Below are positions 32,501-52,627 of a DNA stretch of 64,000 bases, piece by piece; the first letter of the stretch is position 1; each line of letters starts with the position of its first letter. The notes below the pieces were generated by a model. That model did not search any database and was not told the DNA's origin. It saw only the letters and a program-made list of their open reading frames with translations. Where the stretch lies: assembly GCA_965285935.1 (NCBI GenBank), contig OZ260663.1, positions 75,268,001 to 75,332,000 of the forward strand. The letters are read 5' to 3'. Made by a program: the position numbers and the translations under genes. Origin of the DNA: Ophelia neglecta. Its lineage: Eukaryota.

Positions 32501-34584
32501 GCATATAGTTTTGAAGATACACGACATTGACACTCCTCGATACTATTCCCTGTATCTTAACATGAACTTCGAAGACCTAGTACCTCTTAATGTGAGAGAC
32601 AGATATGGCAATCATCTACTATACCTGAAAATGTCAGCATAATTAATGCATTATTTATGAATTGGCACGCAGTTGACTATTCGAGTTTTGCCGGGAACTT
32701 CACCCCGGCTGGCGGCTCTCAACGGTCCGGAGAGGGAGCGCGTCTGCAGACCTACAAGCAGCCCCGTGCTAAACACATGGGCACAATTCAATACAGTGCA
32801 AAAAAAAATTCCTATCTCTTAGCAATCAACAGGATTGAGAGATGAATAAACAAGGTAGATTTCCTGAAAATTACCGCCAAATTCAAGAAAAGAGTTTTTT
32901 GCCGAAAAATCTCTAACCCCGCGAGGCTCACACATGGCCAAGTCGCCCGCGTCCCGTTTTTTTAGAGGACCTTTTTTCCAAGTTTGTGCTTTATCAGCCC
33001 TCCCTAGCTAAGGGCATTTTTGCAAATTTATGGATTCTGAACCTCCAGATCTACACCCGTTTTCAAAATGTTCGGACGAGCTAACCCCCCCCCCCCTAGC
33101 ACTTTTTGTAGCATTTGGAAATAAAATGAGGTCCTTAGGCCTAGAACATATTTATAACCACAGCAGGCGGTAGCGCAGTATGGTTAAATGACGTACTCTG
33201 AAGGCTTACTACTCTTACTACCGAATCTCATCATGCTGTGTGAACATACACACAAACACTGTCAACAGCCTTGACCCCCTCTGCTAGCTGTCAGCCGTTC
33301 CAGTGTTGCGATGCACGACTGCTGACTTGACTGTTTTGAACGACTAAGATCATAACACATCCCAGTAGACATAGGACATCAAATTATTAAAACAGGTCAC
33401 AGGTATAGTACTCATAAATATAGTAATCATTCTAAAGGCTCTTTATCAGTGGTCTGCTCTTATTGTAGGCCAAATTGATATAGGGCTAGGCCTATTAATA
33501 ATTGACCGAATTCTTTCGATGTTGTCACAGTTTAGTGATTTGAAGGAATTGGCAAAACATGTCACGGCATAAAGCCTAATCCTTACTAGTCTATCATGTG
33601 TTGATACGACATTAGACATGCATCATGCTCACGATAATGTACTCTTTCGTTTCTCTGACACTACCCTTATCAATACCATTTGGTCTATAATGTAGCGATA
33701 ATTCGCTGTCCACAAGATGCAAGTAATAGGCCCATTCTTGCATACAGTGGTTAGCAATATATTATTTATGTCTAAGATGTATACTGTATAGGATACATGC
33801 ATAGGCCCAGGCGACCAAAATGATGTGTTTCGACATTATATTTTTCATTGACAGTAAACGTTATAGTATGGTCTTCATATTAGTCATGCTTTTCACTGTA
33901 CCTGTCTTTGAGACCTGTATTTACTAGCCCTTTAGACAACATCTGATTATCTACCTGAAAATACATGAATTTACTTTCCTGTCACTCATTCATGGAGATA
34001 AGGATTAATATGTGCATACCAACCAACAAAAGCGCAATTGATAGAAGTTCAGAGGGTAGATATGATGTGGGCATAAAAATTAGCCAGGGTGACCCTATAT
34101 ACTAATGCTGATACGAATTTAACTGTGTAAAAACGAATAGTAGAAAAGTAAATGTCGTTGGCAATTTCTCATTAAAACGGGCTAAACTTTGATTAAAGTC
34201 CTTAGTTTGTGACACAACAAAACATATCGCAAAATTGGCAGTGCAAATGATTTGTTTTATCGAGGAGAAATTGGCCCTTATCAATGTTGTGCAGCGGTCA
34301 CTGCGGCAAACAGCATTATTGTACGGCTAGAGCATGTCTTGAGCCCATTCATATAAAACAAATAACCAGAAAACCTGGGGTTGCTTCTATTGAAATTAAG
34401 TACATGTATAGTATAAGTATTGAATTGCCACATTTTTTTGTCGTTGTTGAATATAGCATGTTTAAATTTGGATCTTCATTAAAACATAAATTATCTGTTG
34501 AGAACGAGATAGGGAGGCATTTTGCTCACTGTGTAATTGCAACCATATCATAAAAACAACTAAGTTACATATATTAATATAATA

Positions 34585-34762
34585 CAGTGAAACCTGCCTT
34601 AAAGACCACCTCTATAATCAGACCACCTGTTAATTCAGACCACTAATATGAGGATTATTTTGCATACTTTCAATGTTAAATAACCTGTCTAAACAGACCA
34701 CCTCAGAAATCAGACCAGCATTTCCCAGTGCCTTTGGTGCTCTTAATTCACAGGTTTCACTG
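34585..34762. mobile_element. Tc1/mariner (pogo/Tigger-type) MITE
   Basis: The structure is TA|CAGTGAAACCTG...CAGGTTTCACTG|TA with internal AGACCACC repeats. It ends ~35 bp upstream of the first coding exon of the ubiquitin-domain gene. Confidence 0.85.
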
Positions 34763-34798
34763 TATATGTATACCAAATTCGCAACACTTTTCCTAGGC

Positions 34799-37700
34799 AT
34801 GGAGTCATTCATTCCGGATTTCAAGGGGGTATCCTTAGCTGGATATGGAATCGAAATCAAAGAAGGCAAGCATATAAACACACCCCAGGGTGAATTTGTG
34901 GAGCTGAGTCATGGGAAGGAATATAGCCTTGAAGTGATCAACTTCAACTGTCACAGGTGTAGATTCAATTTGAACATTGATGGGTATGATCAAGGTAGTT
35001 TATAATTTACCTTTTCAGTATCTTACATAATCCCCAAAACGCTTGGAATAACAAGAGTTCCATAAATGAGTGTAACCAAATGTTCTGGTCTATCCCTAGT
35101 TCGACCCAGTTGCAGTTTTACCTGTATAGTATCCACTATGTTGCTCTATCCTCCTTAATAGGAACAGGCTAGTGTAGGGAGAAAGTAGGCTCAGGGTAAC
35201 CAGAGTAATTATTTACATTTCATACAAAAGTAAATTTGTACTATCAGATTTCATACTATATTGATACGTTATGTTGCCGAGGAAATATGTAAGCTAATTG
35301 AAAAGTCATTTCAATTTTTTTACTACAGGGTCTTGGCAAATCGGACCTCTTAGCACAGGGAATATTGAAAGACCAGCAGATGTTCCCAAAAAGTTCACAT
35401 TTTATCGAGTCAAATTTGCTCCCGATGGTTCTGGAATCAAAGCAGGCAGAAATGAAAATGGTCTTATCACTTGTAGTTTCGTTCCGGAGGTGGGAGCTAG
35501 TGCGATTGATGTAAGTAAAATAATTGGATATGTGTAAAAGGTATGTCATGAAATTGGTTGGTCGATGTTTATAATTTTTATTTGGCGTTTCTATATAGAC
35601 CACCCCCTCTCCTTTTAGAGGTGAGGTAAATTGGAATATGTAGTATATAGAGGACCAAGGCAACTAAATCCATGCGAGGAAATACTTTGTCATCCTTTTT
35701 GTTTTTTTTAGTAAAAAATAATCTGCGTATTAATTTAACATTGTGATAGTTCCTTATTAAACTTACCTGCTAAGCTTAGTCTTTCCGCCTAGTTTTGTGA
35801 GTACTCAGCCTCCTAGGCCAAAGGATTTTGGAAAGTTGCCGTCAAATTCATTCTTGGTTTTAACCTATGCTTTATTCCAGTTTGTTTTGTCAGTTCCATG
35901 TAGTAGCCCAGTTGTCAATTCTGCCCAGTTCAGTATGTTTTCGAAGCACTCGACTAAAGACTTGGCTGACAGAACTAAGGGAATACTAACATCCAAATAC
36001 AACATCTCAGATATTTCTGAGTATGAAGTCATCCGATGGCTCTCCGGAAAACCCAACAGCTGCATGAAAGATTTTTTAAACCTGGAAGGAGACAATAAAA
36101 CCTTTCTGCAGTAAGTAAGTTTGTTAGTAATTATGGTAGAAAAATCAAGCTCAGATAGATGGGTTTGTATCACATATATAATGGAAGTGAAGAAGACTTC
36201 ATATTGATTGCTGTAATTTCAGATAAAAAATGTAACAAAGGGGATTAATATGATTGGAAATGGAGGATTTGGGCATTCATGTCCAAATTAATTTTCATAA
36301 TACCTTTAAAAGTGTTAACCAGTGAGAAAGAAATGGTGTGTTCGTGTTTGCATTTGTGTGTATGGTTGCCTCTGTCCTGTCCTGTTGGGGCAAATGTATG
36401 TATGAATGTATACTTGTACCTGTGTATAAAAAAGTCAAAACAATAATGACAAATTAAGAGAGAAAAACAGTTTGTTAGTAATTTTTAATGGTATCAATAA
36501 CGCACAAGAAGATTTTTATAATATTTTGATGCAAATATTCTATGTTGTTAACACCTTCTCAGCAATTCCAGATCAAAACTGTAAAACCTTATTAAACCTA
36601 ACTGTGGTTAAGGTTAGTACACACAGGTTTAATATATAACTTTTATTACACTCACTTTTAGATTTGATGGCTACAGAGAGGATGAGATGTGTTTCATAGA
36701 TTGCCTTCCAAAGCTAAAGTCAGTCACCATAAAGTATAAAGGAGACACAATAAATCACAACTTGCTGTCTGCGCCAAAAATTAATGATATATTGAAGCTG
36801 ATAGAAAACTTTGAACTGCAAGACTTTTGTTTAGTAACAGAAAAAGGAAGGCCTTTTTTCCTTTCGCCTTGGGCCAAGGTAAACATGATACTTATAAGAA
36901 GACAATTTATACCCTTCATGGAAAGTATATTAATATTCGCATAACAGATAGTATGTGTGCTGAAATAACCTTCGGGAAAACAACCCCTGCTCCTTTAAAA
37001 AGTCCGCATCCTGAACTTTACACATCATGGTCACAAATGTGTTGCAGATAGTTTCACTGGGCATACTGTAAACCTTATACAAGATACAAGGGGAATTTAC
37101 ACATACATGTATACTAAACAAATAGATAGAATTGGCTTGTGAAGGGGTTGGGGGTCGGGTTTTGTTGATGATCAACAGAAAGGTTCAATGTTTAATCCTT
37201 ACCCCCATCTCAAACGTAAACAAACAAAGAACCACATTTGTTCATACCTTGTATCCTGCTATCTAGTTTCTGGTAACTTTTGTAGGATTTTATAGTATGC
37301 AGGTTCAAGCTGTCTATGACTATACATAATATCACCACCAAGCTACTGCAGTATAAAACTAATCTGATCCCCTCCTTCACGCTTGACATGGATATAATTT
37401 TTTTATATCTATTTTCTGAAAAATGGATATCATAATCATGCTTGTTAATAGCTTTATTTTCTTCAAAGGTGTTTGATTTGACATGAATATTTCAACATTA
37501 ATATTGTCTAGTCATTCACGGCTTCATCATTAGTGCCTCTGGTAGAAATATTTTTGCGCTTACCAGAATGAAGCACCTTGGAATTTGGCCGTTTATATGT
37601 CTTTAATGTCTCCATTCAGACATTTGGTGAGGAGCATATTTACTTTCTCCTGAGGAAAGCTGAAATAGTTGATTGTGCAAGAGGAGGAATACTGAAAATA

Positions 37701-39195
37701 GAGGTCTTTGATGAAAAACCACACTCTGATTCGTGCTTTGAGGTAACTGGTAATTTATCAATTATCCAACAGACAGGGTGACATAAAAGTACATATTATG
37801 AACATTACCATATAATAGATGGATTGAAAAAAATGTATGCAACCGGAAATATGTATACAATATTGTCTGCTGCTTGTTTTTTCTGAAAGGCACATGTCAG
37901 GACACTGACAGGAAAAACCATAACTTTACTATTAACCGATGACACCAGCATTTTGGAAATTAAAATAATGGTACAAATGAAAGAAGGCATACCACCAGAC
38001 CAGCAGCGATTGATCGCATCTGGACTGCAGCTAGAGGATGGGTGTGAGGTTAGAGATTACCCCGGCATCAGGGAGGAGAGGGTGATGCATTTGGTATTGA
38101 GTAAGCAATCTTATGTACTTTATCTTCAAACTTTACTCTTTGGGCCTAACGAAACATTTGATTTTCAATAAGAATCGGTTTATATGAGTAATACTCTAAC
38201 TCTATTCTTTCAGGGTTACGTGGCGGAGGTATGGACCCTAATCTGCAAGTTAAAGCTGGCGATATTAGCTCAGGTAATTTAAAAGTGATGTTCATTTGGA
38301 TTCGTTATTTATTGATTTATTGAATTTCCTTATCCTGGGTAGCCCTACCAACTGTTATTCTTGGTGGTCCAGTTTACAATGCACACCTACAATGGGGTAT
38401 TGATTTTTAAAACATTAAGCTGGTGTTGATTGTTGATTGTTGATAAATCTGCTGTATTATTTTCCCCTCTGTGTCTATCTGTTAAACAGAAAGTGACACT
38501 TCTGCCAAGAAAACACTGAACGCTCCCGATTCAAACTGGGTGTCAGGCGCCACTACTCTAGGACAGGCCAGTCAGCAAAAATTTCAAACTGTGAAAGCAA
38601 TAAGAATTGATCCCTTAAAGGAAACAAAAATAATCTTGAGGCTGGTGGCTAGGCAAGTAAAGGTTTTGTCATATTATATTGAACTAATTTACAAATTGAA
38701 AACAAATGCTAGAATTAACATTGACCTGGTATTTTTATTCCACAAAATATTGCGAGCAGAGTGTAGAGGTCGCCTTGCTAAGATTGTAATGTTTGAAATT
38801 GGCATATATAACCATTGTTGTGAGCGAAAGGAATTCAACGGTTGTGATGTGATAATAGTCTGTGTTGTAGGGGAGATGAACTGGTAGCTCAAAATCCAGT
38901 AGTCTGCACACAAGCTATACAGTCAAACCAATCTACTCCGGCAGTCTCCAATATAAGGGACTCGACCAGCGGCAACATAGCTAGGTTGGTTGAGGATGAA
39001 GCAGGGGACAGAGATGGTGTCAGGGACCAAGCATCATCTAAGAAGAAACTAAAGAAGATCAAAGGGAGCTGTATTATAATTTAAAGTAAAGTTTGTTTGG
39101 TTTCCAGGGGAAATGAGCTTCTTGTATATCCACAAGTGGACCAAGTTGAATGCACCCCACTTTCATCTCAAGTGCCTCCTGCAGTGCAAGACTAG
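34799..39195 (+). CDS. Ubiquitin-domain-containing protein: uncharacterised beta-rich N-terminal domain, 2 probable degenerate UBLs, 1 clear ubiquitin domain, C-terminal segment; two alternative last exons (531 aa CaaX form or 489 aa form)
   Basis: Phase-consistent exons are 34799-34994, 35329-35510, 35881-36110, 36662-36878, 37620-37742, 37890-38100, 38214-38273 and 38490-38652 (GC donor), then 38871-39084 or 39108-39195. The ubiquitin domain reads [15 protein letters not shown]...[21 protein letters not shown]...VMHLVLRLRGG. An acceptor just before the ATG implies an upstream exon that I did not identify. Confidence 0.85.
37890..38227 (+). other. Ubiquitin domain with intact LRLRGG, internal to the protein
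   Basis: Splicing 38100 to 38214 gives [13 protein letters not shown]. The segments TLTGKTITL and [11 protein letters not shown] are identical to ubiquitin. Confidence 0.9.
38871..39084 (+). CDS. Alternative last exon A, ending ...[16 protein letters not shown] (polybasic stretch plus CaaX)
   Basis: The acceptor is tgtgttgtag. The exon is open in phase 2 from the GC donor at 38653 and stops at TAA 39082-39084. Confidence 0.75.
39108..39195 (+). CDS. Alternative last exon B, (R)[28 protein letters not shown]
   Basis: It has a strong acceptor (gtttgtttggtttccag) and the same phase as exon A. Its peptide resembles the start of exon A ([13 protein letters not shown]...TPAV). Confidence 0.7.
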
Positions 39196-41246: not shown

Positions 41247-41509
41247 TCAAACGTTCATTATATGCGCGTTGACGTAAATACTTTCGAAGACTGCAGAGCA
41301 CCCTGTACATTTCCAAGACCCTTCTGTCAGTTGTTCCTCATTTATCTGCTCTGGAGGAAGACATGTTTTGTGCCAGCTTTTCTTACAATCTGAGCACATG
41401 ATACATGTAGTGTCCGGCATCACCAGTCTGGCTGTGCATTCAACACAGTTGATTACTTCTACTTTATCCTGAACTTCTTGAAGGCTCACACTTGAAACTT
41501 CCCGAGCGC
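41247..41509 (-). other. PHD finger (C4HC3) terminal exon of the pseudokinase gene
   Basis: The peptide is CVEC-x12[14 protein letters not shown]15-WKCTGC, preceded by a phase-1 acceptor (tctatttttcag). Confidence 0.8.
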
Positions 41510-44500
41510 CTGAAAAATAGAACACCTGAAATAGTGCTGTTCCTTACATGGCTGTAGATTGAGATGTATTTATAGCAAATTCAACATGATGGTAAGTTGA
41601 AATTATAATGGAGACCCTCACTAAGATTTAGGTAATCGCTAGCGTGAGAGCCACCATAGACTTTTGTCATTTCACGATTATCTGGGACTTGTGTCCACAG
41701 TAACTGCGTTCCAATGTTACTTTTATGGTACATGATTATCATGCATATAAGTACTTGTGTCCGAAGCTGTGTCTTTCTCTGGCTCCATAAATTTGACGTT
41801 TTTTCTTCTGGCTGGTACGGGCAATTCATCGTCACTAAATGCTAGGTTGTCCGCTCCGTTCTCCCCAGTTCCTGTTGAACGTTCTGTTCAGAGCGTAATA
41901 CAATATGACAAGTTATGGCCCGTTTTAGAAAAGGATGTTCATATGTTTGTTACTGTACATCTAACGGATAAGAACTTACGCTTGAATGTTCGTGTACTGA
42001 TTCAATGTCGTTTGTGCTCGGAAACTGTGTCCTTCACTTCAACTGTAGGGAGTATTTAATTCCTAACGAATTCGGACCGATTTAATTGACATTTCCTGAT
42101 TAATGATTTTGTATTATCTGACGGGTAGTGACTCAAATTTTTAAGATAAACACCAATATATATTCTACTACTGTGTTTTGCCGGTTTTCAAAACTCAATG
42201 GGTGCAAACTCTTCTCTTAACTAACAATCTTAATAGTGCAGAGGAAATGTTACCGTTTGAGGTGATGTCTAGCTGATGACAACTGATTTATATTAAACCA
42301 ATTTAATAACCACAGCACATTTGGATAAAACAACCAGTGATTAACATTAGTTCAGGGCGGATTACAGTTCATTTATGCGGACAACTCCGCATGGGGAACT
42401 GTGTAAGCACTAATGGAAAAACAAAATGTGATAACGTCATACTACTGCTATACATAATTAGCAAACATACCTTTTGGTGCCTCTTCTGTTTCACGAAATA
42501 CGACGTGTTTTTGACTGTTTTCCTCATTAATATACTCCATTGTATTTCTTATCTTTGAAAACTCAGGCCTTTCCTTTGGGTTTTCTTGCCAACATTGTTG
42601 CATGATAAGATAAAGTTGATTCGGGCAGCCGTCGGGTTTTGAATGCCGGTAGCCTTTCCTCACACTGTCAAGAACCTGCTTGTTGCTAAGCTTTTCTGAA
42701 ATTAAAGTAAAATTCACTCCTATTGAGGATCGCGTAAAATTGAATTGCCTACTTAAGCAAATACCCCAAGTGAAGGGACTCTTAAAGCAACATGTACCAT
42801 ACAAGAAGGCACTCAAACGGTTGGAATTAGTGAGGTTTGGAAATTATATTTGTATGTGTTGTAGTCGACTAGGTAATTGCATTTAAGGAAGTAATCACAA
42901 ACCGCTATGTAGTCTTAGAACAGACCTGGGTAAGGGATTTCTCCCTTTGTAAATATTTCCACCATTGTGATACCGTAAGACCAGACATCTGACTTGTGTC
43001 CGAATTGTCTTTTTAATATCGCTTCCGGGGCAGCCCAGCGAATGGGAAGCTGGACAGATTCATCTAGAATAAAGTATGCACAAATTGGTTACATGTGCAT
43101 GTCCCTCGTAAGCAGTGTATATTCCCGTAATATGCAAGATTACTGAGCAGGATATAGTCGGAAATTACTAATATGCAATTGGTAGTTAACTCACTGACAC
43201 TGTCAGAAAGAATTAATAAATTCTATAGTGAAAAGTATGGTTGTACTAGAAGGTCCTCTTATGATGTTAATTGGTTAATACGACAGGCTGCTTACAATAC
43301 AATTGAATTGCATTTTACGATGTTTTTATTTCGAGTTTTTATTTTACTTCAATTTAGATTTTGTATCAATTAGAATATGGTATATTATTCTCACCAGCTG
43401 TCGCATAGATAGATTCTTCCATCAGACGAGAGACGCCATAGAGACTGATTTTGACTCTGCGATTGGAGTCAACCATAACATTCCTGGCCGCTACATCTTT
43501 GTGAACAAATGAATGTTCCTCCAGATAGCTCATACCACAGACTATCTGCAGTTGAAAATATAAGATTAGTAACTTAATAAACGTATATGGTGGCCCAATG
43601 ACATAAATAATATTATTTTACAACATGGAATCAAATTAACGTCTGGTAATAAACTGGGGGTCAACAAGAAATTTTCGTTGTTGATAGGTTAACTCGATTT
43701 TTGTTCGTTTAGTGCTAAGTTACAGCACATATAATAAATTGCTAACCGTTTTAGTTTTATTAATAACTAATATTGGCTACCTGTGTGGCAATATCTATCA
43801 AAACCAAGAGGTCCAAGTCGGTTCCTGCGCCATCCCGAAGATAATGAAGCAGATCTCCATTTTCCATCCACTCAGTTATAATACTAATGAAGGATGCTCA
43901 AATAAATATTGACAAAACAAGCACCAAAAGAATTTCGTAGACAACTTTATTTGAGATGTTTAAAATGCTGGTTTCCATGGTAAAATAAAATGTGTTTATT
44001 AATTACCTGTAAGGTTCGCTTTCTACTACTATGCCATAAATGCGGAGTACATTGTTATGTTTCAAGGTCTTCATTTGTTTGCACGTATTTTCAAGTGTTC
44101 CTTTTTCCAACAACCCGTCTTTCAACACTCTCGCACATACAAGTAATGTGTCGTTGAAGTTCCCTACCGTATCGGATATATGAATAAGCTCTATTAATAA
44201 TTCAACCCGATTAACATGTGTGTGTGCGTGATGATCGAAAAGTCAGGCCTCACTGGTAAATAAAAGCCGTGAGGCCAGCGAGTCTTATGTTATTAATGAA
44301 TATGCATTACTGATACAGTAACGTTGGTCGCCCCCCTCAGTTTAAAGTTTAAGCATAATGACTTCAGCAACACAAATCTTACCCCGCCATACTTTTACTA
44401 GTTTCCCCTCGTGCACATTGTCTTTATATGTCAGGTAGTTTTCATCAATGGTGACTTTATTTTGAAAATTCTCACTCAAATCCCACAACATCGGGGGTTG

Positions 44501-47500
44501 TTTCTTGATGGGGTTCTCGATCAATTTCCCTGTGATTTTCAGACACTTCCTTTACATACGAGTATATGACAACAAATTTCTTATTTCCGCGAGGAGGCGA
44601 TATATGCTCTCAGTACTAGTACTATTATGCTGATAATAAGGTAGACAAAATGCCCACACAATTTTTAAGAAATTGGGTTTTAGCACTACAAAACATATCC
44701 TTCGGTAACAAAGTTTCTTACACAAGTTTCCCATGACCAATCAATTGTGTTTGTTGATAATGATAGTAACGCAACAGACCCACCTTGGTAGTGTTTTATC
44801 ATAGCTTCTAAGTTCTGAAAGACCTGGTCGCTTTTAATATGGTATCCCTTGGAGGAATGGATTGGGTACTCGGTGACGTATGGTCCTTTTGAAATGTCGT
44901 AGGACCGCAAAGACAAAACCAAGGAATCTGCAACACCTGAGTAACTTAGAATATCTTTTTTATACCTTTCTATACTGGTACAACTACGCAGAAACAGTCT
45001 GGCAATTGACATATAAAACAAAACCTAACCATTAAAGTCACTTCTTTTTGAAACTAGATAGTCGCCAGTTCGTATATTGGCGGATACTATTCTGCTGAGT
45101 GCCTCACGTCTCGTCAAGTTGCCATGATACCACCTACAACAGCCAGAATTAAGTTACAATTTAAATCTATAAGGCACAAGGGGCATTGACTTTAAATATG
45201 AGACTTATAGATTCGTTGTATTGTATCAGAGTCGTACTCGTAGTGTATGTTATCTTCTTTTGCAGCAATACAGTTGCTAGGTATGAAGCCTAAGCTGTTT
45301 GTTTTGATGTTCCTTACGTGCGACCAGTCGCCTATTCTGGAAGTAGTCCGACAACATTGTGATGCAAAATTTTAAGTCATTCCAATATTGTATCGTTTAT
45401 AATTAAACCATTTTTGGTTTCGATTTTATGCAATGAATGGGCAATCAAGGTAACAGAAACAGTATAAACACCCTACTCTTTTATAGATTCAACAATATCT
45501 CCTTTCGAAAAAGATGCATCGGTCGACCCTCCTTTGAAGTCACAAATTACCATTTTCGTCCCCTTTCCTATCAATTTCACAAAAATAATTCCTTCATAGA
45601 ATGCATGAAATTTTTTATATCACTAAGTTTTATTATATATATATAGCCAAAATCAATATGGCCGTTATGTACGAACAAATTTTTAAGTAAAATTAACGTA
45701 AACTTACCGCCTTTCAATAAATTTGATATGACTGAGGGTCGTGCTGCAAGTGGCGTTGGAATGTCTTCATATTCGTTTCCTAAGGCTTCTTCCGTTTTCG
45801 TCATAAAGGAACTGTCTCGGACGGCCAACTCTGAAGCTACAAAATTCATTGGTACATATCCCACTTCACCATCTGTTTGCCGCTTGCATTTCTTCCAGTT
45901 GCCTTCATTCCTGGTAGAGACATGTAATGTAATGAGGAAAGATGTAAGGTTATATTTATATGAACCAGGTCGGTCATTATAATAACTTATCAATATGCTC
46001 AACAGGAAATGTATAGGTATAAATACACGTTTAAGAGGACTGAGTAAAATGTGAATTTTGAAGGGGGTTGAAAACATTATAACAATACAATTCAATACAT
46101 TTTAATTTTGCCAAGAAACTAATGCAGAATATAGCTGATTTATTATATGCAAATACATAAGTATTCTTATCAAAAAAGGATTGACACCATATGGTATATA
46201 TACCCCATTCTTATTTTCTCTGCGGAATTACATTCCGTGGGGAAAAGAAACAAAGAAGATAAAATAAAATGAAAATTACATTTGAAAGTATAAGACCAAT
46301 TTCAATTGTCACAAACAGTATTTCATGTTATAACCTCCTGATATGACACTGCTTTTTGGGAAAGTCTAAACCTTGGAACATGCACTAGATGATGTGTTCG
46401 CCTAGTTATACAGGAGTGAACATCACAGTTCATAAGGAACATGCCATTAAACAATGCAGGCAGCTAGTTATTTCTATGTTAATATATTACTATAGCAACC
46501 TGGTGTTTATAGATATTGAACAGATCCAGCATTTTCAAGTTTTGAAATATCAGCTCTGTACTTGCTCAATATGGATGACATGATATAATTCTAAAAGCTC
46601 CCTTTTGCAATTTAAACAATAAGTCAAGTCTCTTTTGGTTAGACCCAAGACCTAAATTAATACAGGTTATAAGCTAAGGATAAACAATACAAATACAGAG
46701 CTGTTAAAGCATTTTTGTTGAGTATCCCTTTTGGCATCCATATGATCCCGAAACCTTAAGAAATCTTAAAAAATATCATATTTACATGGTCAGACCAAGA
46801 CAACCTTGAGTCAATGAGGACACACAGGAACTTAGTGGAAGACTAAACACCATGAATTGAGTTTTTTTTTATTGATAAAGGTAATTTATCGGCTTCTCAC
46901 CATGTGGCAATGTTCTTAAAATCCTTATTTATTATTTCTAACACTTTTCTCTCCACATTTATCAGTGACAAATACATAAGTGTCATCAGCAAATAACACA
47001 GAGAAAATTTCTATGGGCCTTGTGATAACTTGTAAAGCTAGAAAGGTTTTTGCAACGGATATCCTCATCTCACTCTACTAAACATGTTAATGACATATTG
47101 TATTAAGGTTTGGGGATGTACTTATTTTTATTTTTTTTCATAGTGGTAATTTTATTTCAGCTTCATCAGTTTCATATATTATCAATGTTGGGGATGTACT
47201 TATGACTCGAAAATAGATTCTATTATAAAAATACAGAAAAGAACAGTACGCGTAATCACTGGGTCGTCGGGAAAAACTCCAACAATTCCAATCTCCGTTG
47301 AAAATAAATACCCATGCCTAGTTTACATATCAGGATTCTGCAATGGCCTCTTGCCACAGGTTATATTATCTATGTTTACATTTTAATTTGGATCTGCTCT
47401 ACTATCACACCTGGCAGGCCGGGAACTCTCATGTGAAGAAACACCAGACTAATATATTTGGAAAAGAAGCCTCATTTGAAACTATATATGTCTGCTCTCG

Positions 47501-50500
47501 TCAAGCGTTCAGAAGGTCTGCAAGGAATTTGTTCATTTCCAAATTAACTGTTCAAATTGACAGGCTATAAATCAAACCTTTATTACACCCCTATGCAATG
47601 CACCTAAAAATATAATACGTTTGGTATTTTCTTTTTATATATATATTGCCACCCTATATGTATTGCTTGTGTCTTCCTTATTTATAATAGACATATAAAC
47701 CATAGGCTTCCTGTTAAGCCAATAGTATTAATCATATAACTGTAAAGTCTCGATTGCCTGTAATTGTATATATATGGCAATACCATTCAATAGATTTAAT
47801 TCAATAGATTCAAGATCATACTTGCAACACTGGAGAGATCATTTAGATATAGAGCAAAAAGAAGTGGTTTTAATATTGATCACTGAGGAACCACATAAAG
47901 TAAATTTCTTAATAGATTTTGTTATAAGAGACAAATTAAGAAAGTCTTTAGAGATAACTCTCAATCAAAGCATAAACAGTGCCACGTTTTCCATATTTAT
48001 ACAATTTTAAAGAAGTATAGAATAATCTCATCACTATTATAACTTAAATCAGGATCTATCTCATCAAAATCAGAGTTAAATTTTGAACTGCTATCATTAA
48101 GTTCAAAAGGATTCAGAAATCTTTCTCTTAGTGCAGACCAACTCAATTTTTCTGGTTATTTTAAATAGTAGAAAGAGTATTCGTGAACTCATCACTCTCT
48201 ATAAATCGATAAGTTCACCAGGAAGTGCATTCTTCTTACATTTAACACAACTCCAATTATTTTGAATAGATCCTGTATATACAGGATTTTTTGCTGAAAC
48301 ACCTGACAGTCACTTTATATGGCACACTCCATAACAAACACCACAGCCAATATAATGAGGCACCGACATTGTATTATGATATCAATATAGATATGCAATC
48401 TAACTTGGACATTTGGAATCAATCAACTAATCTAATTTTTTGAAATAGGCAAGCACATATGAACCAGATTCTGGGTTCAAATTTACTACGTGAGATATTT
48501 CCACCGTTTCCCTGGGATCCCAACCGGACAAAAGGTCGATTCCATATTATTTGAGGCCATTAATTCTCTATATAATTGACCTACTTTATCTTTAGTTGCC
48601 AGTTAAATGTCCTTCAAGGGGGCACTAATATAAGATTTGTCAGCGAAAGCATATGGCTGTGCAATGCTCAGTGTTTCACGATTTGTTTTTTCATTGTAAC
48701 CCTATCCCAATATTTAATGGGAGAGTGTTTGCCAACTCTACACAATTGGGGAAGGCATTGGGGAACGTTTGTTTCAATGTAACAATTGCATGATAGACTA
48801 TCAATAACGATCAACTGTACTTTGTTCCCTAGATGTTTGCTTTTTTTCCTGTCTATTGCGCTTTTCTTTCAGGGATACTGCGAGCGCAGAGTAACTGATT
48901 TGTCTTAACTGACTCGTGTTTATCAAAGACAGTTAGGAGAACTACGAGAGTGTATACTAGGCAGACAATTGAAGCAAAATCGTTAATCAACAATAGCCAG
49001 TTACATCGGTCCGACCTCATCGGGAACAACATACTGAACCACATACTGGCCCACGTACCTTAATCCCAAGCTCCCAAACTGTGAGTGAACTTGTAATGCT
49101 AATAAAAAATGAAAACAGATAAATAGGATTGGAAACCTTTAACCTACTGCATTAGGTACTTACTCTGAGAGTTCTTTGAATTTGTCCCCTTTTTGGAATG
49201 TTAGAAGACCTTCGGAAGGCTCATCAAAGTCATAAAGTGCCACAAATATTTTGGATTGTCTGTCACCTAAAAGTTGATCTTATATGCAATGTCCATTTAA
49301 ATATGTGTGGTAACACTGACAGGCTTAACATGGCTTGTCTATATTTAAATCAAATTTCAATATTAATCTTTCTGTTTTACCAATATAAGTAGTGTAGGCT
49401 ATCGCGTTTTTCAAGCGAGAGAAATAACACGTTAGATCATTAATGAAATAACCTGGCTTATTAGAAATTGATTCGGGAGCTCCAAGTCCGTCTAACGGCA
49501 TACTCGGCTTATTTGGTAGTGGTCGTCTCTCGGAAGTTCCAACCTGGCCTGAATCCGACGTGTCACTTTTAAGCAAACAAACACAATTATAGGTTATTTC
49601 TTTTTTTCTCTAAATGGTTCAATCTTGGAAAAACATCTAGTTTGTAAATAAGGGTATAGTTCTTATTGTTTATTTACAATTTAGCAACGGGGCAAGTTTT
49701 CTCTATTTAATGAGATTTTATAGCCTACAAATCATCATTTTAACTGTACATCTCGAACCGAAATATATTTATAACTAAGCCATACATCGTTGTAAGTGTG
49801 TTTGTATATGAAATATCAGGTGCGGCTGGAAAAAAAAAATCGAATGGTGCAAAATTTAAAATTAAGAAGCAATTGTGAGAATATTTTAATGTCCTTGGAT
49901 TATAAAGAAATTAATATCAATAAACAATGGTAAATTTAACCCTTCATATTCAGATTCCTGTTCCCTGGCCATCTCACTGACGTCCGAGTCTCCGGAACGA
50001 GGAGGCGGAGCGGCTGGCTTACGTGCAAGACTGCTCGGATCGGCTGATTGCATTGGTTTAACCTCCGTTGGTTTCGTCTCCACGATCTCCACTTTCTCCA
50101 AACAGGCCCAATAAACAAGTAAACCTTTAGGATCTTCCACCTCATCATTGGAACTGAGGTTGATACACTTGCATTTAGGGCTGTTATTAACATTCCTATT
50201 GAAGAAGAATACGAATCTTACATACCTTACTTTTAGAAAATCACGCACTTTTCACGTGTCAATCACTAATAAGACGTCACAAGAAGAGAAAGATTCACAC
50301 CGTATCTCGTTAGGCTTATTTGAGAAACCTTTAAGGGAACACAAATGCTCTACAAAGCGAATATTTAGTTGCTGATTTAGTATAAATGTTGAGCATGCGT
50401 GCGTAGTGAATCAGTTGCTCTTCAATCTTAATCGATAATTGTTCCAAGCAGGCCCTCTTGAATATCACACGGGTACAAAAATAGGTAAATCAAATGACTT

Positions 50501-52627
50501 TTGCAAGGGGGCGAGAGGGCGAGGCGGGAGATGTAGGATCGTGTACTAAAGCTTCAAGTCGACCGGTTTGAGGTTCTACCTCTTGAGACTAGTCTCTGTT
50601 GGGTTCGAGTTGGGTGCCGGCTACCGAAGCCTCAATATCAGCTGCTGTTTGAGGCTTTTTGTCAGGGCTAATTAAAGGCACTGTATTATCATGTATATGC
50701 ATTTTTGCCATGCCCCTTTATCCGCTGAGGCAGGTATTTTTCGTTACTACGGAGCATGCAGTTTTACATGCACAATGTCATACCGATTAAGGCAATATGA
50801 GTAAACCGAGAGTCGGGTAATACTCTAATGCTGGGGTGTACGTAGTGTATTGTTATTCTCTTCGTACACACGTATGTACGATTGGTCAACTTCTCGCCTC
50901 GCTGCCTGCCTCTTCGCATGCTCAAGCATCGGAAGAAATGTTTAAACAGGTTTGGGTGCTTTGCACCCTTTTTTGCACCTTTTTTTTATAGACAAGTACA
51001 AAATGTTAAACTAGTCACTGTAACTAATTTCTTCGGGTATAATCCAAGCTGTAATCTCCGGGTCAATTATAATTATCAAATATGAAAATACCTTATTCCG
51101 ATTAAAAGAGCCACCTAAAAGAGGCACACTGCAGTTTAATTACCCTTCATTATTTTGGCCCTTTACCTTTTTCGAAGAAAAATGGCTAGAGGCGGCATGT
51201 ATTGGGCCTCGAACCACGACGCCGGCTACGCCGCGTCTGCCGGCCTACTTCGTTTTGCCCGGAACTAAGCAACGCCTTGAACCAAAGCCCCCAATTTGTC
51301 TTTTTTAATGTATTTGGAACTTGCAGTTTTTGTGTGGATACTTTTTATAAGCTAACTACTTCTATTACTACTCTTAGTGTACACTTCTGCTTGTTCTTTC
51401 TTCCTTCATTTCTATTCATTGCAGGTGGTTTGAAAGAAAATCCTGTTCTTAACCTTTTACCTCTATCTAAGCTTTTACCTTAGAGTATTCGGACTTTAAG
51501 GACTGTCCGAACACCCATTTTTACCACCCCCTTTCATTGATGGGGAACGGGGGGGGGGGGGAGGGGGGGGGGGGTCTCGAGTTTTTAAAGCATTGTGTAA
51601 CAGGAAGGACGGTGATTTACACATACTCGGGAATTAGTTTGCTTTTGATAGTGCCGAAGTTTTTGGTATATCACACAGTCTCGATAATAATCTTTTTTTC
51701 TGATTTTCGGCCAATTGAGATGGAAAAGGCCTTTTTGACACGGAAAATTGAGCCATAGGTGTGGCTTGTAGCGTACTAATTTAAATCGATTTTAAAAACA
51801 AGTTAAGCGATACAATTTGCATCCCTATTTGATACTAACCCTGATACGACCTCAATTATATCTCCCTCGTTGTAGCTTAGGTAGCCTTTTTTCTTTGACT
51901 GATAGGTTCGCTTGGCAGAATATATTGGTTTGCCTGGAATACGATTTCTTGTTGTTATCTTTATTATCAACATTACAGATAGCTAAGTTTCATAGCTCTA
52001 GGTCCATTTCTAATGTCATAATGGTTGGCTATATATTACTTGGGACCATAGACCAATGGAGCGAGCCATGTAGTCGCTGCGGTGAAAGCCGAACTTTTTC
52101 CATATTTGCACCTGCAGACAGCATTTCATAGTCTGTTGAAAACATTTATTTACATACAGATGTGAATTTATTACACTGAATCGACCATGATGAATCGATT
52201 GTTCATTTGTTCAAGTGTGACTTCTCTATAGAGCCGGCAGAATAGCGCCTTTTCGGTAGGTGGAAAAAGTTCGGCTTTCACCGGAGCGACTAGATGGCTC
52301 GCTCCATAGCTCTATGTATGGTCCCAAGTAATATATAGCCAACCATTATGACATTAGAAATGGACCTAGGGCTATGAAACTTAGCTACATTACAGACTGT
52401 GCTAAGTTAATTATAACATGTTGATTGGTTACAAAAGAAAAATGACAAGATAATTAGGCCAAACTTAGTAGACGAAGATGAAGGATTGAACATCCATAAA
52501 AGGTACAGAAATACATGCCTTTTGCCACCATGTCATTCACCTCATTTGGTGTCAAAATGGTCGCAGCGTATTCCAACTCCTGTCCGGGTTCAGATTGGGC
52601 TTCCGGTTTACTGTCACAACACCCCAT
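41247..52627 (-). CDS. Src-like non-receptor tyrosine pseudokinase, ~865 aa: MGCC anchor, Pro/Tyr-rich linker, SH3, SH3, SH2 (Arg-less), pseudokinase, acidic linker, PHD finger
   Basis: Exons on the minus strand are 52627-52515, 50195-49941, 49565-49453, 49266-49164, 45910-45708, 45567-45477, 45336-45238, 45133-45030, 44927 (or 44936)-44784, 44529-44383, 44163-44007, 43883-43781, 43545-43395, 43063-42926, 42695-42471, 41883-41755, 41681-41622 and 41509-41247, all phase-compatible. Motifs seen: ALYDF...[60 protein letters not shown]. The first junction and the linker exons before the PHD are less certain. Confidence 0.85.
41980..42042 (-). other. Candidate 63-nt cassette exon with in-frame TGA ([13 protein letters not shown])
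   Basis: It has a ccctacag acceptor and a gtaagt donor, is symmetric phase 1-1, and lies between the kinase and PHD exons. Confidence 0.55.
46500..48460 (-). mobile_element. Decayed, internally deleted CR1/L2-clade LINE in the intron that splits SH3 #1
   Basis: Minus-strand remnants include a PHD-like [11 protein letters not shown]...WSCVKC (~48230-48370), FLNPFELN...DEIDPD (~48050-48120) and the RT motif VLFADDT (~46980-46998), with many stops. Boundaries are approximate. Confidence 0.7.
51980..52387. mobile_element. MITE with ~120-bp TIRs and 9-bp TSD (Mutator-like)
   Basis: TAGCTAAGTTTCATAGC...GAACTTTTTCCA is mirrored by TGGAAAAAGTTC...GCTATGAAACTTAGCTA, and CATTACAGA flanks both sides. 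Confidence 0.88.

Follow-up and report, generated by a model that had tools for sequence, protein, structure and literature searches.

A ubiquitin-like domain ending in LRLRGG is predicted to lie within a single beta-sandwich fold in Ophelia neglecta

Results and discussion

We analysed a 64,000-nucleotide stretch of DNA from Ophelia neglecta (assembly GCA_965285935.1, contig OZ260663.1, positions 75,268,001 to 75,332,000 of the forward strand), referred to here as the window and numbered from its first letter, and focused on a plus-strand gene predicted to encode a ubiquitin-like domain (Ubl) placed inside another domain. The window is animal-type DNA from contig C5 of a 762-Mb assembly. Nine exons between 34799 and 39084 join under modelled splicing into one stop-free frame of 531 codons; seven of the introns are GT-AG and the eighth, which follows exon 8, is GC-AG. 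The protein motifs quoted in an initial annotation of this DNA are all present on the plus strand where it had placed them, and they join into one open frame. Its extent of 34799..38652 covers exons 1-8 correctly and stops short of the modelled ninth exon, which carries the gene to 39084. The features of the gene are listed below (aa, amino acids; N part and C part, the two halves of the split domain).

34799..34994, plus strand: exon 1, encoding aa 1-65 and the first half of the beta-sandwich N part; 74% identical to the paralog exon
35329..35510, plus strand: exon 2, encoding aa 66-126 and the rest of the N part; motifs ERP..KKFTFY and NG...F.PE
35881..36110, plus strand: exon 3, start of a 190-aa loop insert; 41/72 identical in the paralog
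36662..36878, plus strand: exon 4, loop insert; 36/72 identical in the paralog
37620..37742, plus strand: exon 5, end of the loop insert; 22/40 identical in the paralog
37890..38100, plus strand: exon 6, ubiquitin-like domain; Pfam PF00240, E 3e-16
38097..38227, plus strand: LRLRGG, aa 386-391, interrupted by the intron 38101-38213; G391, codon 38225-38227, is the residue after which a cut is predicted, and Gly follows it
38214..38273, plus strand: exon 7, Ubl tail plus linker
38490..38652, plus strand: exon 8, encoding the beta-sandwich C part at about 38537-38652 (GATTLG..S.Q.F...LRLVA); GC donor, GT in the paralog
38871..39084, plus strand: exon 9 (modelled), disordered tail; a lysine-rich stretch, then CIII, a CaaX-like prenylation signal

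The Arg codon of LRLRGG is divided between 38100 and 38214-38215, and the motif exists only after this modelled splicing. The splice is supported because the frame is continuous and because a paralog on contig C7 (G000:C7:4624952-4619968, minus strand) has a matching exon pattern. The first eight exons of this paralog follow the identical pattern, and the gene model gains support from the shared arrangement, including a GT donor at exon 8 where the window gene has GC. The two genes differ with dN 0.32 and dS 1.66. The paralog may be decaying, given its long branch in the core tree described below (0.63, against 0.04 for the window gene), yet dN/dS across its exons is still close to 0.19. Its ERP motif is weakened, and its candidate last exon has no CaaX. 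At the window locus, a second, independent DNA contig spans 34746-38981 with zero differences, and exons 4-7 carry no allelic difference among the 40 of 55 listed. It is very improbable that the splice model is wrong or the gene silent, so that LRLRGG is never made. The splice is known from modelling, and a miniature inverted-repeat transposable element (MITE)-like sequence of very high copy number, with perfect 15-base terminal inverted repeats (34582-34765), ends 33 bases before the ATG; both points lend that explanation some weight. It is opposed by the open 531-codon frame with its consensus splice sites, by the exon pattern and dN/dS of the paralog, and by two contiguous homologs, P0076 and P0210, that show the same order of N part, ubiquitin domain with LRGG, and C part. 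Endogenous viral insertion was also considered as an origin for the gene and is ruled out by its eight introns and a neighbouring tyrosine kinase gene.

Exon 6 matches the Pfam ubiquitin family PF00240 with 59.3 bits (cut-off 25.4, E 3e-16) and is identical to ubiquitin residues 5-71 at 39 of 67 positions (58%). The Ubl occupies aa 316-391, between the two parts of one predicted fold, and is thus not N-terminal as it is in ubiquitin-fusion precursors. As the initial annotation had described, it ends in a perfect LRLRGG, which we place across the modelled exon 6/7 junction; the next residue of the modelled protein is Gly, i.e. not proline. Conjugatable Ubls that are read by an E1 enzyme share a hydrophobic patch, R72, R74 and a terminal GG. 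The window Ubl retains L8, I36, R42, I44, H68, V70, R72, R74 and the whole tail, and lacks K6, K29, K48 and K63, a residue pattern that would be expected of a domain recognized by enzymes rather than one used to build chains. The 190-aa insert that precedes it (exons 3-5) gave no significant Pfam match and no match to Ubl profiles; it might, judged by eye, consist of two beta-grasp domains that have decayed.

The regions flanking the insert belong to a family that we delineated with profile searches. Searching exon 2 against 1.84 billion representatives returned 131 matches, many of them repeat proteins that align in several short stretches, and 55 were retained by eye; a follow-up profile search returned 108 matches. 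With local N and C profiles, 163 of 239 sequences were accepted as members, of which 69 are full homologs with both parts. In this family, an N part some 95 aa long is joined to a C part of roughly 40 aa through a variable loop, whose length in 38 plain members ranges from 29 to 91 aa (median 55). These searches bear out the earlier proposal that the N and C parts represent one uncharacterised family. The patchy spread proposed with it is also upheld: named members come from stony corals, soft corals and one chrysophyte, further members are a phage-like contig and a weak Gemmatirosa match (E 3e-5), and giant viruses enter by predicted structure. A member on contig JAJFFX010000023.1, binned as Marinicaulis, was not counted as bacterial; the neighbouring repeat-protein genes look giant-virus-like, and mis-binning is possible. 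In stony corals, the locus tags of members lie close together, suggesting gene clusters.

For the host domain, no Pfam family scored above its cut-off in 20 proteins scanned, no PHROGs match was obtained for seven proteins and no NCBIfam match for eight. Word-index homolog searches using single exons found no match, and searches of viral contigs, phages and plasmids with single exons or the minimal member P0130 found none except the one Gemmatirosa match. The ESM Atlas returned only hypothetical clusters (phage, Gemmatimonadota) with low recognition. No description of the family or its architecture was found in the literature searched, which lay outside most subscription journals and supplements, and the available portions of PMC8195603 and PMC10871703 do not mention it.

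Structure prediction argues that the two separated parts make a single fold, as had been suspected. The AlphaFold2 model of P0130 is one beta-sandwich with strands from both parts (pLDDT 85, pTM 0.78), in which the loop blocks are at low confidence (pLDDT 54-64). When exon 8 of the window gene was docked on exons 1 and 2 as separate chains, it scored 0.64 compared with 0.28 for the best of three controls, where the docking mark is reached by 51 of 78 solved pairs and 2 of 108 mismatched pairs and is only a rough calibration for three chains. Agreement between docking runs covers at least 57% of contacts, pLDDT of the partners does not fall below 43, and the last strand of exon 8 is predicted to pair with strands of both exon 1 and exon 2. 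No solved relative was found by sequence or Foldseek search, the best result being a VIA Z of 7.0 to generic Ig-like MSP domains. Among viral predicted structures, 31 share the fold at E<=0.001 (Foldseek against BFVD, query P0130), from Marseillevirus, Yasminevirus, Pithovirus, the iridovirus ISKNV (ORF098), nudiviruses and WSSV. Four of these, Marseillevirus A0A481YTN3, Pithovirus W5S497, ISKNV ORF098 and Penaeus monodon nudivirus A0A076FE02, resemble P0130 in predicted fold with E 4e-16 to 2e-11, TM 0.65-0.74 and 24-26% identity; they are annotated as uncharacterised.

The sequence beyond the di-glycine bears on whether the Ubl could be the end of a large conjugatable modifier, as the initial annotation had proposed. 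According to this proposal, a 391-aa N-terminal piece would be cut free, charged by E1 and placed on lysines, and soft corals, in which the Ubl is fused to a death effector domain (DED), would tag their targets with that domain. The residues needed are present in the window Ubl, namely R72, R74, the I44 patch and GG. Ubiquitin E1 reads the RLR of the tail, which is missing from the soft-coral tails. Moreover, 140 aa lie downstream of the GG, including the conserved C part with a predicted core strand of the N-terminal fold, and this is not the short disposable pro-tail of known modifiers. A precedent is chicken OASL, which is large, carries an LRLRGG tail, has a pro-form and conjugates mainly with itself (PMC8764230). 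Taken together, the downstream strand weakens the idea of a modifier precursor, which we now regard as improbable.

We next consider how the Ubl and its GG are distributed across the family. A loop Ubl was detected in 29 of the 69 full homologs, and GG ends the Ubl in 28 of the 29 that combine a loop Ubl with a C part. Six homologs have a near-canonical ubiquitin tail ending in GG: P0076, P0106, P0210, P0013 and the near-identical pair P0041 and P0132. In P0041, P0132 and P0013 the two domains are interleaved, such that ubiquitin residues 1-57 are followed by the whole N part, the last ubiquitin strand with GG, and the C part. A larger set consists of 22 DED fusions in a soft-coral-type clade (including P0151, P0155 and P0177), one of which is named, from Dendronephthya (XP_028399128.1). 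The loop Ubl of this clade was missed by Pfam in the two proteins tested, yet folds as ubiquitin (Z up to 11.9). The P0151 copy is 76 aa long with GG at 75-76, and GG is invariant in all 22 fusions, whose pairwise identity is 48-88%; conservation directly after it drops to a mean of 0.38. We regard the invariance of GG in this alignment as suggestive, not overwhelming.

A midpoint-rooted FastTree phylogeny over 148 columns, built from 44 core sequences selected such that most fragments and near-duplicates were dropped, places all 15 of its ubiquitin-bearing sequences in one clade of 20 with support of 0.998. One old insertion of ubiquitin followed by several later losses is the simplest reading of this tree, and the arrangement of a Ubl within the fold appears to be ancestral to a eukaryotic clade.

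Considering these data together, we tentatively favour, with a little less than even confidence, a mechanism in which the window protein is nicked at its internal Ubl and held together thereafter. Host deubiquitinases (DUBs) would cut after Gly391, and the two pieces would stay clasped, because the post-cut strand is predicted to form part of the core of the N-terminal fold. This would yield not a freely released modifier but a bait-like protein of two chains, with a free di-Gly end exposed on its ubiquitin-like domain, and its C-terminal piece might be held at a membrane by prenylation of the modelled CaaX tail. Ubiquitin-processing cysteine proteases would probably take such a protein as a substrate or bait, in the context of defence or cell-death signalling, a role suggested by the coral DED fusions and by the fold match to the white spot syndrome virus protein wsv390/AAP-1 discussed below. 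A cut after G391 would be likely because pestivirus polyproteins are processed at an internal ubiquitin (PMC8310069), and simple release of a modifier would be excluded because the downstream piece carries the predicted core strand. The CaaX-like end depends on the GC donor and is found in one of 84 family members, and the homology of the exon-9 tail is not significant, with 249 of 1000 shuffles scoring equally well. Within exon 9, at least seven allelic differences fall in 53 bases (38982-39034), six of which alter residues, and the single change in a CaaX codon is silent. The frame of exon 8 also meets no stop for 78 codons when read on through the GC-donor intron (38653-38887), such that its retention would give an alternative end lacking CaaX.

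Several observations weigh against this nicked, clasped arrangement. LRLRGG is dependent on the modelled exon 6/7 splice, and the paralog has its exon-6 donor shifted by four bases, as reproduced by a run contig, and reads LRSR instead of LRGG. The expectation that LRGG is kept in relatives is thus borne out for the GG of the 28 homologs and not for the paralog or the tandem Ubls of stony corals, which lack GG (P0136, P0154, P0066 and P0141). A Ubl is undetected in 40 of the 69 full homologs, and no C part was detected in P0154, P0066 and P0141. Among the soft-coral-type fusions, 16 of the 76 Ubl columns are invariant regardless of GG, and the tail reads G-G/V-x-G-G in place of LRGG, a pattern that would also fit a flexible linker. 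The window gene itself has no DED, and no DED exon was found either in the window or in the sequence preceding the paralog. With respect to the proposed role, the link to wsv390 is one between predicted structures at 13% identity, with the viral cleavage motif DEVD not placed in the loop by sequence, and caspase-type DxxD[GSAN] motifs are not enriched in loops without ubiquitin (2 of 40, 2.5 expected).

Part of this evidence would fit a Ubl that is never cut, or cut to no effect, and acts as an integral domain binding ubiquitin receptors or the proteasome, its GG being inherited from the inserted ubiquitin and kept as a flexible exit linker. The loss of GG in the paralog and the stony-coral tandem Ubls and the glycine-rich soft-coral tail without RLR are what such a domain might show, and in P0041/P0132 and P0013 the placement of the N part inside the ubiquitin sequence may hinder recognition by a protease. 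However, the 22 diverged soft-coral-type Ubls all hold GG at exactly 75-76 with conservation falling right after it, and the window gene retains the whole of RLRGG yet has lost K48 and K63. We consider an uncut Ubl unlikely, though the most probable of the alternatives to the nicked protein.

Ubiquitin-fusion precursors such as UbL40, UbS27a, FUBI-eS30 and Sde2 provide the closest reference for a nicked window protein, and two further systems are relevant: USP1, which autocleaves at an internal di-Gly and whose fragments stay together, and UBL3/MUB, which are CaaX-anchored Ubls. The window gene shares with USP1 an internal GG at which a cut would leave the fragments together, and differs in having no protease domain. 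It shares with UBL3 a ubiquitin fold and a prenylation signal, whereas its CaaX lies 136 aa after GG and lacks conservation across the family. Ubiquitin-fusion precursors and the internal ubiquitins of cytopathic pestiviruses (PMC8310069) resemble it in having a ubiquitin fold, GG, a non-proline residue and then more protein in frame; unlike in those precursors, the Ubl is internal to another domain, and a cut would divide a single fold rather than free two independent proteins from each other. ISG15 and avian OASL (PMC8764230) likewise carry an LRLRGG tail on a larger protein and relate to the window gene through an immune context in relatives, but their pro-tails are short, compared with 140 aa including a predicted core strand. 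The gene would work like a ubiquitin-fusion precursor, but it lacks the N-terminal Ubl and the short tail of the known classes.

The viral match invites comparison with proteins in which an exposed loop is cut by a protease. wsv390/AAP-1 is described as a P35-like inhibitor that is itself a substrate cleaved by caspase (PMC3317351; see also PMC6950620), and the names wsv390, ORF390 and AAP-1 refer to the same protein (PMC3171479, PMC6683665). With P0130 as a stand-in for the window protein, the Foldseek match to WSSV wsv390 has E 5.3e-6, probability 1.00, TMq 0.47 and 13% identity. wsv390, considered together with the substrate inhibitors P35/P49 of baculoviruses (PMC3317351), resembles the family in being a predicted beta-sandwich that exposes a region open to cleavage; homology to wsv390 was not found at the sequence level, and the candidate site in the window gene is the ubiquitin GG and not an Asp site. 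P35 is not among the best 50 matches listed in the PDB fold searches. DEVD272 of wsv390 falls by eye just before a C-part-like end, where profiles perform no better than shuffles and give conflicting registers, and no wsv390 relatives were found for profile building.

These comparisons raise an alternative in which the loop is a regulated tripwire or P35-like trap: an invader's protease or an activated one would cut it, and either the enzyme would be trapped or the N-terminal piece would be freed from a membrane-anchored C-terminal piece to signal. Housekeeping DUBs cut near-ubiquitin tails and should already cut this one, leaving little room for regulation. In addition, the DEVD site is not mappable to the loop, and a CaaX occurs in only one of 84 members. 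What speaks for regulation is the predicted-fold match to wsv390/AAP-1 (E 5e-6; PMC3317351), the coral DED fusions and the presence of [RK]GG in six of 40 ubiquitin-less loops, where 1.4 were expected (p 0.0015, post hoc, one of seven motifs tried). On balance, we consider this alternative quite improbable. A broader scheme would unite large DNA viruses and eukaryotes in one undescribed superfamily of cleavable-loop beta-sandwiches, in which the loop is a swappable protease bait, carrying a caspase site in AAP-1 and, in a eukaryotic clade, a di-Gly Ubl that senses or traps ubiquitin-specific proteases, with a DED added in soft corals and a membrane anchor in the window gene. We put this scheme forward as a rather doubtful conjecture.

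Ubiquitin fusions are normally cut between two independent proteins, and here a di-Gly Ubl lies inside one predicted fold, with the di-Gly outlasting the rest of the Ubl in the soft-coral-type death-effector fusions. If cleavage of the nicked, clasped protein is real, it would represent a new use of ubiquitin processing, to nick or arm a domain, and would assign a first testable activity to an unnamed family whose proteins occur in corals, protists and giant viruses. AAP-1, the caspase inhibitor of the shrimp virus, might also gain a structural relative on the host side.

Other features

Outside the window, a stretch at about 848-925 of the minus strand of locus L004 resembles the family C part (tblastn E 0.034) and ends at GT; it may be a remnant or a chance match, and it lies past exons that resemble a sulfotransferase. 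Within the window, the gene is followed downstream by a lone minus-strand open reading frame that matches a PHD-finger (41250-41543, E 3e-5) and by a multi-exon tyrosine kinase gene (about 42450-52000, minus strand; Pfam PK_Tyr_Ser-Thr). The open reading frames upstream in the kinase gene look SH3/SH2-like by eye only, the scan having given no confirmation.

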